Under the pieces are notes generated by a model. That model saw only the letters and a list, made by a program, of their open reading frames with translations. It did not search any database and was not told where the DNA came from. This document shows positions 1-48,991 of a DNA stretch of 57,348 nucleotides, piece by piece. Numbering within the stretch: position 1 is the first letter of the stretch; every line of letters begins with the position of its first letter. The position numbers and the translations under genes are program-made. The stretch comes from Candidatus Latescibacterota bacterium (GTDB taxonomy: Bacteria; Latescibacterota; UBA2968): contig JAYODI010000029.1 of assembly GCA_038279365.1 (NCBI GenBank), positions 1 through 57,348 on the forward strand. The letters are read 5' to 3'.

Positions 1-965
<965 letters not shown>

Positions 966-3374: not shown

Positions 3375-3450
3375 GCGGCAGTAGCTCAATGGATAGAGCA
3401 TCTGACTTCGGATCAGACGGTTGGGGGTTCGAGTCCTCTCTGCCGCACCA
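3375..3450 (+). tRNA. tRNA-Arg (anticodon UCG)
   Basis: 76-nt cloverleaf: acceptor GCGGCAG/CTGCCGC, D loop with GG and A20, anticodon arm TCTGA-CTTCGGA-TCAGA, GTTCGAGTC T loop, encoded CCA. Confidence 0.97.
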
Positions 3451-9091: not shown

Positions 9092-9865
9092 TTATATAAC
9101 AAAAATCTCGCTTGGTCGCTCTTGCAATGCAACCGTTAATGGGAAACGTCTAATCCCGCGCTTTGTAAACATATCTTGGCATGTTTTGCGTGCCAAGTCA
9201 GGGTGATTGTTCTGTTCACTCAAGTGGGCCAAAACGGCTTGTTGCATACCCTCTTCGGCCAAATCACACAACGTCTCTGCCGCGCCATCGTTGGGCAAAT
9301 GACCATGTCTGCCACTAATCCGCTTTTTGAGATCCCAAGGATAAGGTCCGTCCATTAACATCTTCCGATCGTAATTGGCTTCAATGACCACCAAGTCTAC
9401 AGATTTCAAACGTTGGTAAACCAACTGCGTCATCACACCCATATCGGTGGCAACGGCCATGGAGGCGGAACCATCGCTCACGACATAATTAACCGGATCG
9501 GCAGCATCATGTGGCAAAGGAAAGGGCTGGAAAGCCAAATCACCAATAGAAAAACCTTCATCCTGGGCAATCACACGCACACGCTCTGCACCTGTAAACG
9601 TTTTTTTTGAGCCATCCAAGGTGCCCTGTGTCATCCATACAGGGAAACCATATCTACGGGCCATAACGCCTACACCTTTTATGTGATCGGAATGCTCATG
9701 GCTGACCACAATGCCCTGCAAAGTTGCCGGATTCACGCCAATGCTGCTTAAACGGGTCTCGATTTGCTTGCCCGTTAAGCCCGCATCAATTAATACACTT
9801 GTTGTGCCATTTTGGATATAAATAGAATTACCCGCACTGCCACTGGCCAATAAACACACTTTCAC
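9092..9865 (-). CDS. MBL-fold metallo-hydrolase (YycJ/WalJ-like)
   Basis: LASGSAGN, HEHSDH, PHDA, EANYD, YPWDLKKRI..HGHL, HLSEQNN. GTG start at 9865 follows GAGGAG (ORF track 9925). Confidence 0.9.
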   Translation of the reverse strand: MKVCLLASGSAGNSIYIQNGTTSVLIDAGLTGKQIETRLSSIGVNPATLQGIVVSHEHSDHIKGVGVMARRYGFPVWMTQGTLDGSKKTFTGAERVRVIAQDEGFSIGDLAFQPFPLPHDAADPVNYVVSDGSASMAVATDMGVMTQLVYQRLKSVDLVVIEANYDRKMLMDGPYPWDLKKRISGRHGHLPNDGAAETLCDLAEEGMQQAVLAHLSEQNNHPDLARKTCQDMFTKRGIRRFPLTVALQERPSEIFVI

Positions 9866-9976
9866 CCAACAACTCCTCTCAATCAAGCGGTCGTTTTTCG
9901 GCTTTCGGCTTTTTTGGCCACACACACAGGTGGTCGTGACTGACCGCTGATTGCTGATTGCTGATTGCTATTTGCT

Positions 9977-11194
9977 CTAATAAAACGCCATACTCACAAA
10001 AGAAACCATCTGCTGTGTGTCTTGATCTACAATATGATCATAGTTCAACAATTCACCTCGCTTGGCATCCATAACTTGTAACATTGTATAAATGGATGAT
10101 GTGCCACATACGCGCGTGCGGTCACATTCTTGAATGACCACATCAAAATAACCATCGGCATCCATTGCACCTGCTTTTTTAATTAAAGCCTGGTCCACCC
10201 TTTCCACATCTGCTACAAAACCGTCGGTCAACACATCTGCATCACCAAAATGTTGCCCCACATGGCTTAAATCGACACCTGCAATCAAACACACGCGTTT
10301 GCCCGACACATTCAACACCTCTTTTAAACCTTGCACAAACTCCGAAACCACAGGCGCAGTTTGAGGCATTTTCTGTTTTTCAACCATTTCATGGAACGAG
10401 CCACACAAAATAGGAACAAAAGGAATGTCTTGGTCGGGATAGAGATATTTTAAAAACACAGCTTGAAATTCGATGGCATGTTCTTCTTTGTGTGCAAATT
10501 CATCGGCAAACACATCCAAAGGTGCCCTTTTGGCAATTTGATCAATGATTTCACGATCTGCTCTTAAAACCCCAAAAGGCGTTTCAAAATCTTTGCGACT
10601 CATCACAAAGGGCATACGAGCCGAATGCCCCGTGCCCAGCACCACGAACAAATCAGGAGCAGGCGACTCGGCCAAAGCCTTATATGCCCAAGCAAAACAA
10701 GGCCCGCCTCGGTTAAAATCGATATGCGGCGCAATAAGTGCTCTGAGCGGTTCGGCACCATTTCCGTGAGGACGCCCAGGCCCTGCATCAAAAAAACCAT
10801 CAATCATCAGTCTCAAAACATTTGGATCATCAGGATAAGACAACCCAGCATGAGCAGCAGGTCTTATGGACGCTTGCCGAAAAGCCATTTCATTTTCACG
10901 CCGTCGTGTTTGATAACGTGCGTTGCGAAGCAAAAAAGCCCCATCCAATTGTGCAATGAGTTGACCAATCTCCTCAAGTGTAACAGAAGCACCCGAAAAC
11001 TGCTTTGCAAAAACGGTTTTTAAATCTGTTACCGAATGTAATCCATCCATATGCGAAATCAAAAAATAGGCGGCAGGCGGCACGGCCAAACCGGGGGCCA
11101 ATCCTTCAGGATCGCGCAAATAAACCAACTGCTTCCCTTCTATTTCCGTCGGAAATGCATCGACATATCGCACCAATGGTTTTTCAATCATCAC
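9977..11194 (-). CDS. AmmeMemoRadiSam system protein B (MEMO1 family) with N-terminal extension
   Basis: RPAAHAGLSYP, IAPHID, ETPFG, HKEEHAIEFQ, DLSHVG, VCG. Confidence 0.85.
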   Translation of the reverse strand: MMIEKPLVRYVDAFPTEIEGKQLVYLRDPEGLAPGLAVPPAAYFLISHMDGLHSVTDLKTVFAKQFSGASVTLEEIGQLIAQLDGAFLLRNARYQTRRRENEMAFRQASIRPAAHAGLSYPDDPNVLRLMIDGFFDAGPGRPHGNGAEPLRALIAPHIDFNRGGPCFAWAYKALAESPAPDLFVVLGTGHSARMPFVMSRKDFETPFGVLRADREIIDQIAKRAPLDVFADEFAHKEEHAIEFQAVFLKYLYPDQDIPFVPILCGSFHEMVEKQKMPQTAPVVSEFVQGLKEVLNVSGKRVCLIAGVDLSHVGQHFGDADVLTDGFVADVERVDQALIKKAGAMDADGYFDVVIQECDRTRVCGTSSIYTMLQVMDAKRGELLNYDHIVDQDTQQMVSFVSMAFY

Positions 11195-11199
11195 ACAAC

Positions 11200-13506
11200 C
11201 TATTTTTTATTGACCATATATGCCACCCAAATGCTCACTTCATAAAGCACCACAAGGGGCAATGCCATGAGCACTTGCGAAATGGGATCGGGGGGCGTCA
11301 ATATTGCCGCCAAAATAAACCCAATAAGAATGGCGTATCGACGACCTTTGCGCAATCGATCTGCAGTGGCAATACCCAGTTTGGCCAAAAAGAATGTCAA
11401 AACAGGTAGTTCAAAAACCAACCCAAATGCCAGCAACAATCGAATCACAAAACTGATATACAAACCAATATCAAACTGAGCCGTCACCCCAGTATCGGCC
11501 GTCATCCCCACAAAGAAAACCATTGCCATTGGAATCACAAACCAATAGGCCAAAAGCGCACCCAAACCAAAACACAAGGTTGAGGAACCAATTACAAATG
11601 TTGCAAAATGTCGCTCGCGTGCAAACAATCCAGGCGCAATAAACAACCAAAGTTGGTAAATCAAAATGGGCAATGCCAAGATGCCTCCTCCCACCAGAGC
11701 AATTTCCAATTTGACCATAAACATGCCCATAGGCTTCAATGTCTGCAAAACGGGAGGAAATTCCATAACCCGGATTGGGCGGATCAATACCCGCAAAATA
11801 TCATCGACAAAAATACCACAAAATATGGCCCCAACAATAATGGCGGCCAAACCCTTCAAAATATGCCAACGCAATTCCTCTAAGTGGTCCAAAAAAGGCA
11901 TGGGCTTGCCGTTGTCTACCAAACCATCTTCAGAGGTCGTTCCAATTGATGCCACCGTTCCCTCAGGTACTCGGCGCGTCATGGCTTCTGTTGTATCGGG
12001 TGTTTCTTCTGGGCGTCGAATGGCGGCCACCACAACGCCCATCAACATCATCACCAAACACAACTGAGAAAACAAATCGCCAAATTGTACATAAATTGAT
12101 TGATCTGTTCGACGAACCACATTTTCATGCAAAACGGCTTCATGAAAAATACCCGTCTCTTGCAACCGACGCCCATAAGGGTCGATAAACATAGACACAC
12201 CCGTATTGGCACATCGAACAACCGATCTTCGATTTTCTATTGCGCGAAACACCGACATTTCAGCATGCTGATAAGGCCCCGATGTATCACCAAACCACCC
12301 ATCATTTGTAATCACCACCAAAAATTCTGCACCTGCAGCCGTCAAATCTCTTGCCAACCAAGGAAACACCGAATCAAAACAAATCAACCCCGAAAATTTA
12401 CCCCCAGGCATTTCAAAAACCGTACGTGCTGTGCCCGATTCAAAATCGCCACTGACATATCCTGCACCACTCCATTGAATGTCCCTCAAAATCGAAAGCA
12501 ATTTCGGGAACGGTGCCCGCTCACCAAATGGCACCACTTTCACTTTGTCATAATAAGGGAGGTCACCGCCACCGGGTGCAAAGAAAAAAGACGAATTATA
12601 GCGCCGATCTCTCACAGGATCTTCTTCGTATCGGTTGGCCCCCATATAAAGATAAATGCCCAAAGAATCGACCAATGTTTGCGTCCAGGCTTGATACGTA
12701 CGATGCACTGGGCTTTTAAAATAGGCAGGCAAGGCCGCTTCAGACCACACCACCAACTCGGCTCCCGTTTCTTTGGCCTGAATGGTCAACGGTTTGAGAC
12801 GATCAAAATTGTAGTCGAAACCCCAATGTGACTTTTCAACTGGTGGAATATTTTGTTGTACCAAAGCCACAGACACATCGCCTTGCGGCACCGGCTCTGA
12901 CAACCGCCATACCCCAAAGGCCAAAGGAAGTGCAAAACACAGGGCAAGCACCCCGACCCATTTGCCACGTTGTTCACTTTGGCTCAGGCTCAAAACCACC
13001 AAATTAATCAGCACCACCCAAAACGAAACCCCATAAACCCCTGTTGCTTCGGCAAATTGAATCAAGGGCAAATAATCGGCTTGTGTATGCCCCAACAACA
13101 CCCAAGAAAAACCCATATCACTGAGCGTATTAAAATATTCAAATCCAACCCATATAAAAGGGGTTAGCCACACCCCCAAATGAGAGGTGCGTTTTAGAAT
13201 AAAAGCCCACACCCACACAAACAAACCACGAAACAACGCCATATAAAAAATGGCACCCGCCATACCAGGTGGCGTAATCCAGGCAATCCAATAAAGGGTT
13301 GCGCCATAAAACACCACCCCTTGTACAAAACCTGCACCAAAAGCACCCCGACCACTCAAGTTTTTTGCAGAAACCACCAAAGGCAACAAACTAAAATAGA
13401 CCAAAAACCCCAATGGCAACGGCGGAAAAGCCGCAGCCATAATCACCCCAGATAAGGCCGGATAAACAAGCGTCAATGTCCACCAAGAATAACGGTCTTG
13501 CCCCAT
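11200..13506 (-). CDS. lnt-tatC: Fused apolipoprotein N-acyltransferase (Lnt) and twin-arginine translocase subunit TatC
   Basis: N-part: VQQNIP, VWSEAA, YDKVKVVPFGE, LICFD, ITNDGWFG..SGPYQH, RAIENRR, RCANTGVS. C-part: MPFLDHLEELR, YQLWLFIAPGL, FGLVFELP, AAILTPPDPISQ, PLVVLYE. One frame with no stop; ATG 13506 follows GGAG (ORF track 13548). Confidence 0.93.
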   Translation of the reverse strand: MGQDRYSWWTLTLVYPALSGVIMAAAFPPLPLGFLVYFSLLPLVVSAKNLSGRGAFGAGFVQGVVFYGATLYWIAWITPPGMAGAIFYMALFRGLFVWVWAFILKRTSHLGVWLTPFIWVGFEYFNTLSDMGFSWVLLGHTQADYLPLIQFAEATGVYGVSFWVVLINLVVLSLSQSEQRGKWVGVLALCFALPLAFGVWRLSEPVPQGDVSVALVQQNIPPVEKSHWGFDYNFDRLKPLTIQAKETGAELVVWSEAALPAYFKSPVHRTYQAWTQTLVDSLGIYLYMGANRYEEDPVRDRRYNSSFFFAPGGGDLPYYDKVKVVPFGERAPFPKLLSILRDIQWSGAGYVSGDFESGTARTVFEMPGGKFSGLICFDSVFPWLARDLTAAGAEFLVVITNDGWFGDTSGPYQHAEMSVFRAIENRRSVVRCANTGVSMFIDPYGRRLQETGIFHEAVLHENVVRRTDQSIYVQFGDLFSQLCLVMMLMGVVVAAIRRPEETPDTTEAMTRRVPEGTVASIGTTSEDGLVDNGKPMPFLDHLEELRWHILKGLAAIIVGAIFCGIFVDDILRVLIRPIRVMEFPPVLQTLKPMGMFMVKLEIALVGGGILALPILIYQLWLFIAPGLFARERHFATFVIGSSTLCFGLGALLAYWFVIPMAMVFFVGMTADTGVTAQFDIGLYISFVIRLLLAFGLVFELPVLTFFLAKLGIATADRLRKGRRYAILIGFILAAILTPPDPISQVLMALPLVVLYEVSIWVAYMVNKK

Positions 13507-13507
13507 C

Positions 13508-15172
13508 CTATCTCCCATCACTGGCCACAGGCCACACCAGCGGCCCACTTTTAAATGGCCGAATCAGTTGATTTTCTACACCATAAAAAAACTCATGGCC
13601 ATGTGCGCGCGGTGCATACCAAACACGCTCTACAATTTCGCGATTGCCACGCATTTCATCCAAGGTAGCCAAACGCGTATTGTCTAATGTATGAAACCAC
13701 ACCCCCAGCATTCCATCGATCACCACCGCACCAATAGGCGTTTCAACCAACGTACACAAATGCCCACGTAACCCCATAGACAAAGCACGCAATGGAACCC
13801 CCAATCGAGCACCTATTTTTTCTGCTAATAGTGCCGTCAAACGCGACGTATCGCCACAAAAGCACCCCGCCAAACGAGGAATCGTTTCTATAGATGCGCC
13901 ATTGGACACACGCGACCATGTAGATGAATGGCGCGTGACACACGGATGATGCACCCACATAGCCACCGCACACAGGGCATCTTGCCAATTGGGAAATCGG
14001 CTCGAAATCACTGCCGAAACTTGATCCAAAGCATTGGTTGCAGACAAATCAACGCTGGCATCACCGTCTTTGTCTACCAAATAAAAGTCTGAGGGTGCAC
14101 CCTCTTGTGTGGTTTCCATCGCATAATTGGGCAAATGACTCAAAATATAAGACCGAAACGCATCCAAAAAATCGGCATGATTCGAATCGGGGCGTGTCAC
14201 CCGAGCTCCCCCAAATTGTTCGCGCACCAAAATGCCCGTATCAAAACCAAAAGGAAAAGCCCCTGCCCAAATATGAACACCCGTATCGTCTAGCACATCA
14301 ATATGCAATCGAGCAACATTTGCCAATCCATTGGCCCACTTGGCCCGAAAAGGAAAGATCAGGGGAACCTCAATATCTCCCGAGCCCCCATCGCATCGCC
14401 AATCAAATGGCCCTTGTTCATACACACCATCTGTTGGCAAATCTATGCGTACCATCACCTGCCCAGTGTGTATGCCACTTTGGGAAAACCGACATTTCAA
14501 AAAAATAGGACTTGGGTCGCCCCCCCAAATGGGTTTGCCCAAATCCATCGCATCTACACACATTGTCGGATCGGTTTGATACAAATCGCCAAAAACCAAA
14601 GGCGTATCTCGCGTCCAAGTCACACGATTGGGCCACGCCAATGAATCGGGCATGGGCGTTTCGTGAAACCCAACACGCAGCGACAAACCCGCCAATCCAC
14701 ACGTATGCCACAATCCTTGATCTGGCAATGACACACGCGCAAAAAAACGCGCATCATCCAAATATGCAAACTCACCTTGGGCATCAGCTGGTGCATTTAA
14801 CACTTGCACAGCGTCATCACCCAATTCTTCTCCTGGACAAGCAAAATGCGCTTCTCGAACCACCTCACCCCGATCATCAACTGCGTATAACCAGCGTGTG
14901 GCATGATCATGCTCTGGGTTAAGCAACACAGCCAAATGCGCACGATTATACCACTCTTCGTGATCGGGGCGCGCACCAAAAGGGTTCAAACCTTCGGCCA
15001 GTACAGAAATAATGAGTTGACCTTCGCACAAAGAAATACCCACATGTGCCTTGCGCCCATCGGTATCGGGCCCTAACATGAGGGTATATTCACCACCTAA
15101 TAAGTGCGAAACATCAAATGCCTGCCCATTGGCTACGACTTGAGGCGTATGTAAAACTTGTGCCCAACGCAT
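13508..15172 (-). CDS. Hypothetical protein, possible C-terminal transglutaminase-like domain
   Basis: Long ORF co-oriented with lnt-tatC; GCFCGD...RGHLCTLV...VIDG spacing. Start uncertain (ATG 15172 or GTG 15205). Confidence 0.7.
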   Translation of the reverse strand: MRWAQVLHTPQVVANGQAFDVSHLLGGEYTLMLGPDTDGRKAHVGISLCEGQLIISVLAEGLNPFGARPDHEEWYNRAHLAVLLNPEHDHATRWLYAVDDRGEVVREAHFACPGEELGDDAVQVLNAPADAQGEFAYLDDARFFARVSLPDQGLWHTCGLAGLSLRVGFHETPMPDSLAWPNRVTWTRDTPLVFGDLYQTDPTMCVDAMDLGKPIWGGDPSPIFLKCRFSQSGIHTGQVMVRIDLPTDGVYEQGPFDWRCDGGSGDIEVPLIFPFRAKWANGLANVARLHIDVLDDTGVHIWAGAFPFGFDTGILVREQFGGARVTRPDSNHADFLDAFRSYILSHLPNYAMETTQEGAPSDFYLVDKDGDASVDLSATNALDQVSAVISSRFPNWQDALCAVAMWVHHPCVTRHSSTWSRVSNGASIETIPRLAGCFCGDTSRLTALLAEKIGARLGVPLRALSMGLRGHLCTLVETPIGAVVIDGMLGVWFHTLDNTRLATLDEMRGNREIVERVWYAPRAHGHEFFYGVENQLIRPFKSGPLVWPVASDGR

Positions 15173-15219
15173 ATCATCATCCAAAAAATTGAAGTTGCCA
15201 AACACGGCCAGAGTGGTAG

Positions 15220-48519: not shown

Positions 48520-48991
48520 CAGAATGGGCCTCACCTGAAGATTGAAGACCGTAGGTAAAAAGCAGCAAAACCGTGCCCACACTCACCCATGAGTCGGCCA
48601 AATTAAAGATCCACCACCGTGTATCTCCAAAACCAAAATCTAAAAAATCGATCACCACACCAAACCGGACGCGATCAATGATATTGCCAATGGCCCCGCC
48701 CAACACCAATGTCAAGCCCACGGCAGGCCATTTTGCATCTCTGGGCAAACGCCACAACATCACACACACAAAAGTAAGTGCCACAGCAGCAAGCGCCAAG
48801 TGGATATAAATCCCCCCCAAACGCAATCCAAACACAGCACCGGGGTTGTGAATATACGTCAATTTAAAAAACGAACCCATCACAGGAACAGACTCATATA
48901 ACGCCATCGTCTGCATCACCCACCATTTGGATGCTTGATCCAAAATCAAGGCCACCACTGTAATCCAAAGTGCACGCACACCGTTACCCAT
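48497..48991 (-). CDS. lspA: Lipoprotein signal peptidase II
   Basis: DQASK, NPGAVFG, GGAIGNIIDR, VIDFLD, FNLAD. Confidence 0.96.
   Translation of the reverse strand: MGNGVRALWITVVALILDQASKWWVMQTMALYESVPVMGSFFKLTYIHNPGAVFGLRLGGIYIHLALAAVALTFVCVMLWRLPRDAKWPAVGLTLVLGGAIGNIIDRVRFGVVIDFLDFGFGDTRWWIFNLADSWVSVGTVLLLFTYGLQSSGEAHSDAEQNST

Follow-up and report, generated by a model that had tools for sequence, protein, structure and literature searches.

A conserved lnt-tatC fusion gene in the Latescibacterota that looks more like two merged neighbors than a purpose-built machine

Why should a bacterium encode its apolipoprotein N-acyltransferase (Lnt) and the TatC component of its twin-arginine translocase (Tat) as a single polypeptide, and does the join serve a coupled function or record the merger of two neighboring genes? 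The question is raised by a 57,348-nt stretch of DNA (hereafter the window: the whole analyzed stretch, contig JAYODI010000029.1 of assembly GCA_038279365.1) from an uncultured, estuarine member of the Latescibacterota (WS3), in which one minus-strand gene at 11200..13506 carries both proteins. A first-pass annotation made from the sequence alone had recognized the fusion and proposed that Tat-exported lipoproteins could be handed directly to Lnt, or that the fusion fixes co-localization and stoichiometry. That interpretation survives in part: the fusion is genuine, conserved and, by inference, topologically compatible, and we found no description of it, but the direct hand-over is poorly supported. 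At a probability of roughly 0.65, we read the product as a bifunctional inner-membrane fusion that arose by merger of neighbors, with halves that keep their ordinary jobs and a tether that is not mechanistically required.

One Frame Encodes a Complete Lnt and a Complete TatC

The fusion gene, delimited with Pfam and NCBIfam, comprises 768 codons and a TAG stop at 11202-11200, matching exactly the frame and coordinates of the single frame of about 768 aa reported in the first-pass annotation. The open frame is uninterrupted over 11200..13548 (minus strand), giving 782 aa if counted from the farthest GTG; the ATG at 13506-13504, which yields 768 aa, is the likely start, since a Shine-Dalgarno-like GGGAG (13512..13516, minus strand) lies 5 nt before it and the TAG of the upstream gene lies 1 nt before it. 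The cluster representative P0002 is also 768 aa long and differs from the window product by a Val-to-Ile change.

The Lnt body (residues 1-496; 12019..13506, minus strand), defined by LNT_N and CN_hydrolase, TIGR00546, and the helices of a structural model, opens with seven predicted membrane helices, continues into a nitrilase-type domain on the periplasmic side, and closes with a membrane helix at residues 478-496. Both Pfam families (PF20154 and PF00795) scored above the Pfam cut-offs, and TIGR00546 (lnt) matched with 317 bits against a cut-off of 132.9 over model positions 8-394 of 395. Alignment to solved Lnt places the catalytic residues at Glu256 in VVWSE (GAA, 12739..12741), Lys321 in YDK (AAA, 12544..12546), and Cys376 in LICFD (TGT, 12379..12381), all on the minus strand. 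The three residues align to the WPE, NK, and ICY/ICF motifs of the Escherichia coli and Pseudomonas aeruginosa enzymes and are unvarying in 18 of 18 fused homologs; we take their E. coli equivalents to be E267, K335, and C387. Compared with 20 solved Lnt entries by Foldseek, the Lnt half gave TM-scores of 0.79-0.84, normalized to the target. The full Lnt with a Glu-Lys-Cys triad that had been proposed is thus shown by Pfam, NCBIfam, and alignment, and the Lnt half is probably an active apolipoprotein N-acyltransferase that would N-acylate diacylglyceryl-cysteine lipoproteins.

The linker that follows (residues 497-535, 39 aa; 11902..12018, minus strand) is acidic, Pro/Thr-rich, and predicted to be disordered, and reads RRPEETPDTTEA...DNGKP. 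An AlphaFold2 model of the whole protein, built on an alignment of the 18 fused homologs, folded both halves with a mean pLDDT of 76.7 and a pTM of 0.62, the model coming without an inter-domain error estimate; pLDDT was below 50 across residues 501-539. Among 60 fused clusters, the linker was measurable in 52, where it ranges from 25 to 69 aa (median 36) and is rich in Pro, Glu, Ala, and Asp without conservation of sequence.

The TatC part (residues 536-768, 233 aa; 11203..11901, minus strand) matched PF00902 over its full length (positions 1-208 of 208) and TIGR00945 (tatC) with 197.2 bits against a cut-off of 132.7 (positions 2-215 of 215); both the linker of about 40 aa and the full TatC foreseen from the sequence are present. 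It begins MPFLDHLEELR at Met536, which aligns Met-to-Met with residue 1 of Aquifex TatC. In an alignment to the E. coli structure 9dzz, E544, F622, and E631 are the counterparts of E15, F94, and E103, and all three are unvarying in 18 of 18 fused homologs; F94 and E103 are named as key twin-arginine-binding residues of TatC in the accessible part of a 2026 review of Tat evolution (PMC13673990). The modeled TatC half has the six-helix TatC fold and superimposes on 4b4a with a Foldseek TM-score of 0.88 and an rmsd of 2.5 Å over 223 columns.

The final Lnt helix (478-496), which in the model would return the chain to the cytoplasm, is followed by RRPEE, and the N-terminus of TatC is cytoplasmic in solved structures. 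These two features make the end of Lnt and the start of TatC, both of which we infer to be cytoplasmic, topologically compatible, as had been argued in the first-pass annotation. In a separate observation on TatC, proteins of a sister family (f4; e.g., P0062-P0069) carry an insertion of ~40-90 residues after the first membrane helix, in the first periplasmic loop (alignment A1 columns 776-850), which is absent from the window's order.

The Fusion Is a Genuine Gene and the Only tatC of Its Genome

The lnt-tatC fusion is a real gene. In three other studies, contigs of at least 99% identity run across the junction with no indel, and these independent contigs show neither a stop codon nor a frameshift there; near it they differ only by a synonymous substitution in a Ser codon (11932) and by Val to Ile (12036). 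The source genome, a metagenome assembly of 199 contigs, is 98.5% complete with an estimated contamination of 7.4%, and the fusion holds its sole TatC match and its sole Lnt match above cut-off. No second, stand-alone tatC or lnt was found in the genome, where the 13 other TIGR00546 matches are sub-cut-off and partial and fall mostly in the nitrilase-type region. Because the fusion is the only TatC of the genome, the translocase must tolerate the attachment of Lnt.

We detected a single TatA-family match in the genome, an 80-aa TatA on another contig (C37), and no second match to the TatA/B family. No tatA was found in the 57,348 nt of the window, in line with the earlier remark that tatA and tatB are missing from it. 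The genome has one lgt, located elsewhere from the fusion, and the lspA gene for signal peptidase II (48554..48964, minus strand) lies about 35 kb from the fusion and is not linked to it.

Fused and Split Forms across the Phylum

Two queries, the whole protein and its TatC part, were run against 168 genomes of the phylum. In the window's order (families f1 and f2), lnt and tatC are fused in 53 of 53 genomes, including the source; these represent two families and 11 genera at 53-85% identity, and two of the 53 are cut by contig ends yet span the join. Close relatives are therefore fused and not split. The sister family f4 has 76 genomes, 73 of them with a TatC match, and is mixed: 31 are fused (frames of 801-983 aa) and 38 are split, and the four counted as neither are three that were not among the matches listed and one with an ambiguous frame. 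Fusion in f4, which falls in genera g25, g30, and g31, was confirmed by Pfam or junction analysis in six genomes (G135, G167, G164, G157, G132, and G143). In family f3, lnt and tatC are adjacent but separate in two of three genomes, and no lnt was found within 2.6 kb of tatC in the third. In each of the 16 genomes of other classes for which both gene positions were among the matches listed, the two genes either lie on separate contigs or are over 2 Mb from each other. In one genome (G017, C1:5245410-5247715), the first ~100 Lnt residues lie in another frame (matches 11-108 and 69-781), which points to a frameshift or an error in sequencing close to the 5′ end of that fusion gene.

Across 14 examined split junctions, the distance from the lnt stop to the conserved tatC ATG is 40-176 nt (67 nt in G078), and in 6 of the 14 the two genes are in frame and parted by one TGA or TAG only. 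A tree built from 36 TatC rows, 19 of them fused and 17 split, requires at least four changes between fused and split states. The approximately unbiased (AU) test rejects a single clade of all fused rows (p 3.6e-9) and a single clade of the six f4 fused rows (p 1.7e-8), for groups that were chosen after the tree had been seen and on a tree whose deep nodes are unresolved and which does not by itself root the fusions and fissions or put them in sequence.

The simplest history compatible with these data would begin in the class ancestor, where lnt and tatC would have become co-oriented neighbors spaced by 40-176 nt. The lnt stop would then have been lost, turning the Lnt tail and the spacer into the linker, once in the window's order and at least twice more in f4, or with reversals there. 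Of the 30 linker codons nearest the tatC ATG, a median of nine (26 loci) are one substitution from a stop codon.

At the level of protein databases, 60 fused clusters at 90% identity were found among 120 listed, and at 50% identity both halves were covered in only 2 of the best 150 representatives. The fused clusters, where named at all, are named only "apolipoprotein N-acyltransferase" or "hypothetical protein"; with such labels, an automated survey that goes by name would record no tatC for these genomes.

A Possible Internal tatC Start

Met536 is encoded by the retained ancestral tatC start (ATG, 11899..11901, minus strand), a possible internal start. All loci compared have ATG at this position (32 of 32 fused, 17 of 17 split). 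At the protein level, Met is unvarying in the 60 fused clusters, is preceded by any of P, A, S, E, N, or T, and marks the exact point at which conservation in the alignment sets in. No strong Shine-Dalgarno had been seen before the internal Met codons in the first-pass annotation, and we likewise found no GGAG, GAGG, or AGGA core at positions -18..-4 before the ATG at 11901; such a core precedes 35% of 5165 crude first-ATG starts genome-wide, against a background of 4.2%. When fused and split junctions were compared, no clear Shine-Dalgarno motif was apparent in either group, and because the split relatives use the same ATG, mostly without a clear one, its absence from the fusion is not decisive. 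A sigma-70-like consensus scan of the gene returned no minus-strand site and one plus-strand site (3.5 expected by chance), a result that is uninformative for this phylum. The RNA-library run that matched best, with 11% of sampled words, gave two contigs, at 11099-11311 and 11596-11792; DNA carry-over is possible in these data, and transcript ends cannot be read from contigs.

Free TatC may also be made by internal initiation. The gene would then have two products, the fusion and a free 233-aa TatC from the ATG at 11901, with the tethered form perhaps the minor one. We consider this possible, at somewhat less than even odds. It is favored by the unvarying start Met behind a variable residue, by the onset of conservation exactly at that Met, by the use of the same ATG in split relatives, mostly without a clear Shine-Dalgarno, and by the E. 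coli TatC alignment, which starts at Pro8 with a preceding position that is not the start Met. It is weakened by the missing Shine-Dalgarno core, set against its presence at 35% of crude genome starts, and by the lack of a sigma-70-like minus-strand site in the consensus scan; moreover, the Met could be structurally kept as part of an unvarying MPFLDHLEELRW block.

Few Candidate Tat Lipoproteins

In the established order of the lipoprotein pathway, an exported lipoprotein is processed by Lgt and LspA before Lnt acts on it. Candidate substrates were counted in the source genome by a regular-expression screen of crude open reading frames (ORFs), rather than by SignalP or TatP, with internal starts as the control. 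Tat-like N-termini were found in 115 ORFs (59 in the control), a Tat motif combined with a lipobox in 5 ORFs, of which two to three are plausible (0 in the control), and a Sec-type lipobox in 208 ORFs (76 in the control). With 5 Tat-plus-lipobox ORFs against 208 of Sec type, most Lnt substrates would not pass through Tat. The best Tat-plus-lipobox candidates are a 968-aa ORF on contig C7 (start 27810, minus strand; GRRKFIQ...LTAC) and a 320-aa ORF on contig C109 (start 18489, minus strand; NRRYFMK...TSGC), which would be the natural substrates for any coupling between Tat and Lnt.

Functional coupling could mean that an assembly of Tat and Lnt speeds the maturation of Tat lipoproteins, or that the Lnt membrane domain plays a structural part in a translocase without TatB. 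Some of our data lean toward it: the fusion is fixed through a whole order, the same two genes have been fused or split repeatedly, lnt-tatC linkage is kept through the class, and the genome has only one TatA-family gene and hence no separate TatB. Tat-dependent lipoproteins are, furthermore, a recognized substrate class (review PMC13673990, in its accessible part). We nevertheless regard coupling as unlikely, and the direct hand-over of Tat-exported lipoproteins to Lnt, as put forward in the first-pass annotation, is not supported, on the same grounds. Tat-plus-lipobox ORFs are few; Lgt and LspA act between release from Tat and Lnt, and both are encoded elsewhere, neither linked to the fusion; neither the length nor the sequence of the linker, which is long and disordered, is conserved; the sister family f4 shows interconversion between fused and split states, with 38 split genomes, some of them split by one stop codon only; and both TatC and Lnt fuse with functionally unrelated partners, e.g., NadA and SNase.

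Flanking Genes and Other Fusions of TatC and Lnt

Upstream of the fusion in the putative operon is a gene for a 565-aa protein without a Pfam family (13508..15205, minus strand), whose TAG stop (13510-13508) ends 1 nt before the fusion ATG; it adjoins the fusion in only 4 of 25 examined loci of the order (L012, L013, L033, and L036). The downstream neighbor encodes a Memo-like protein (9977..11194, minus strand) and starts 5-8 nt past the fusion stop. Twelve of the 25 loci have a Memo-like gene downstream of the fusion, and one is also found downstream of tatC in the split genome G079. This gene, often followed by one for an MBL-fold hydrolase, stands directly after tatC in the window (9092-11194, minus strand) and in loci L012, L013, L023, L026, L030-L036, and L121. 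Elsewhere in the window, the 5′ part of a 16S rRNA gene (1-965, minus strand) runs off the window start, and a tRNA gene lies at 3375-3447 (plus strand).

Both TatC and Lnt are fusion-prone elsewhere, as judged from their domain architectures. In KSB1, proteins of 657-713 aa combine an N-terminal TatC with a C-terminal NadA (P0076, P0067, and eight further clusters) and are labeled by NCBI only "quinolinate synthase NadA". The NadA partner is, to our knowledge, a soluble Fe-S enzyme, and no connection between it and Tat is known. TatC-NadA uses the other end of TatC from that used in Lnt-TatC. In a genome of another class of the same phylum (G065; locus L132, 1093..2748, minus strand), a 551-aa protein joins an RnfB-like Fe-S module, made up of PF04060 and 4Fe-4S domains, directly ahead of a full TatC. 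In both, as in Lnt-TatC, TatC is joined in frame to a gene that happened to be its neighbor. Neither TatC-NadA nor the Fe-S module-TatC was found described in print within the literature searched. Long frames without a Pfam match also precede TatC in G042 (L130, 630 aa) and G063 (L131, 408 aa) and may be over-extended ORFs, and elsewhere TatC is fused to a permease. Other Lnt partners are a C-terminal SNase, a C-terminal LEA_2, and an N-terminal PAP2 (among P0208, P0239, P0249, P0143, and P0169), and some Lnt proteins in the same set of clusters have C-terminal extensions of about 350 aa without a Pfam family.

Discussion

An opportunistic fusion of neighboring genes is favored by the unconserved linker, the small number of candidate Tat lipoproteins, the unrelated partners that both proteins have elsewhere, and the similar pattern of the known Lnt-Ppm1 fusion. 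Under this reading, the Lnt half would N-acylate diacylated lipoproteins that are mostly exported by Sec, and the TatC half together with the single TatA would form a minimal TatAC translocase. The tether would enforce 1:1 synthesis and co-localization without being mechanistically required; fixed co-expression and co-localization, the other part of the first-pass proposal, remain plausible as a trivial consequence of fusion, and the mechanistic significance of the join is probably modest. Once fused, tatC would depend for its expression at least partly on the lnt start, and that dependence could keep the fusion fixed across the order without functional gain.

Several points weigh against so modest a role. 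Full retention in 53 genomes could mean selection for the physical link, the recurrence of the fusion in f4 could reflect an advantage, and the census could under-count Tat lipoproteins; nor does this reading account for the lnt-tatC neighborhood itself. With a median of 9 of 30 linker codons one substitution from a stop, fixation in 53 genomes needs explaining, and it could reflect either a benefit of the tether or a ratchet, tatC having become dependent on the lnt start for its translation.

A reading that combines elements of the alternatives would see in the gene a selected module of a TatB-less translocase, with tethered and free TatC isoforms, the tethered form recruiting Lnt or being scaffolded by it. 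If so, an entire order of bacteria would have a physical link between export by Tat and the triacylation of lipoproteins, a prospect that we find rather doubtful. More doubtful still is a polyprotein, in which a protease would cut the single chain in its cytoplasmic linker to release an ordinary Lnt and an ordinary TatC: the linker is exposed and disordered, as such a mechanism would need, but it holds no conserved motif fit for a cleavage site, and signal peptidases would be unable to reach it because it is cytoplasmic. An artifact or pseudogene, with two separate genes joined only because a stop or frameshift between them was lost through faulty assembly or sequencing, might be suspected in a 199-contig metagenome assembly with 7.4% estimated contamination, but we reject it as vanishingly improbable given the unbroken frame in the order's 52 further genomes, many of which are single-contig entries, the 60 fused protein clusters of several sources, and the junction without indels in contigs of three studies.

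Merged neighbors or not, the Lnt-TatC architecture is ancient, conserved, and apparently undescribed. The first-pass annotation knew of no such fusion, and we found no description of one in a full-text literature search whose scope did not extend to subscription journals or InterPro architecture tables; nor is Lnt-TatC mentioned in the accessible parts of the 2026 Tat evolution review (PMC13673990) or of a 2013 survey of TatC diversity. The fusion constitutes a natural experiment in which TatC has remained conserved, and presumably functional, with a membrane enzyme of 500 residues tethered next to the site where it binds signal peptides. The class presents, in addition, a well-sampled series in which the genes are apart, adjacent, in frame with one stop between them, and fused and fixed, and the series is suited to asking whether benefit or ratchet keeps a fusion.

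Comparison with Known Systems

The stand-alone Lnt enzymes of E. coli and P. aeruginosa (5n6h, 5n6m, and 6nwr) share with the fusion the family model, the catalytic triad, and the modeled fold; the fusion differs in having about 270 extra C-terminal residues, and its identity to the solved enzymes is 22-25%. With stand-alone TatC (Aquifex aeolicus 4b4a and E. coli 9dzz) it shares the fold and the counterparts of E15, F94, and E103, but its TatC has no free N-terminus: an eight-helix enzyme is attached there, right next to where signal peptides bind.

TatC also takes part in a natural fusion in haloarchaea, where the 14-helix TatCt consists of two fused TatC copies, both of whose twin-arginine (RR)-binding sites are probably inactive (PMC13673990); TatCt is the sole TatC fusion discussed in the accessible part of that review. 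TatCt arose by duplication and fusion of TatC with itself, whereas in Lnt-TatC the partner is another enzyme and the RR site remains intact.

A close parallel is provided by mycobacterial Ppm1 (Rv2051c/BCG_2070c), described in the accessible part of PMC3850990 as a two-domain Lnt-Ppm synthase. In Mycobacterium smegmatis (MSMEG_3859/3860) and Corynebacterium glutamicum (ppm1/ppm2), the corresponding genes are separate and adjacent. The Ppm activity of the Mycobacterium tuberculosis fusion is kept after deletion of its Lnt domain (PMC3850990). As in Lnt-TatC, Lnt is N-terminal, the second enzyme is attached at its cytoplasmic C-terminus, and the partner genes are separate and adjacent in relatives, here those of families f3 and f4. 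The two fusions differ in that the partner in Ppm1 is a soluble cytoplasmic glycosyltransferase domain and not a six-helix membrane protein; Pfam matched no such polyprenol-phosphate-mannose synthase domain in Lnt-TatC, the C-terminal part of which is TatC. The Ppm1 fusion occurs in Actinobacteria, and its link to a lipoprotein-glycosylation pathway has no counterpart in Lnt-TatC. Lnt-TatC is thus a second natural Lnt fusion after mycobacterial Ppm1, with the same pattern of fused genes in some lineages and split neighbors in others.

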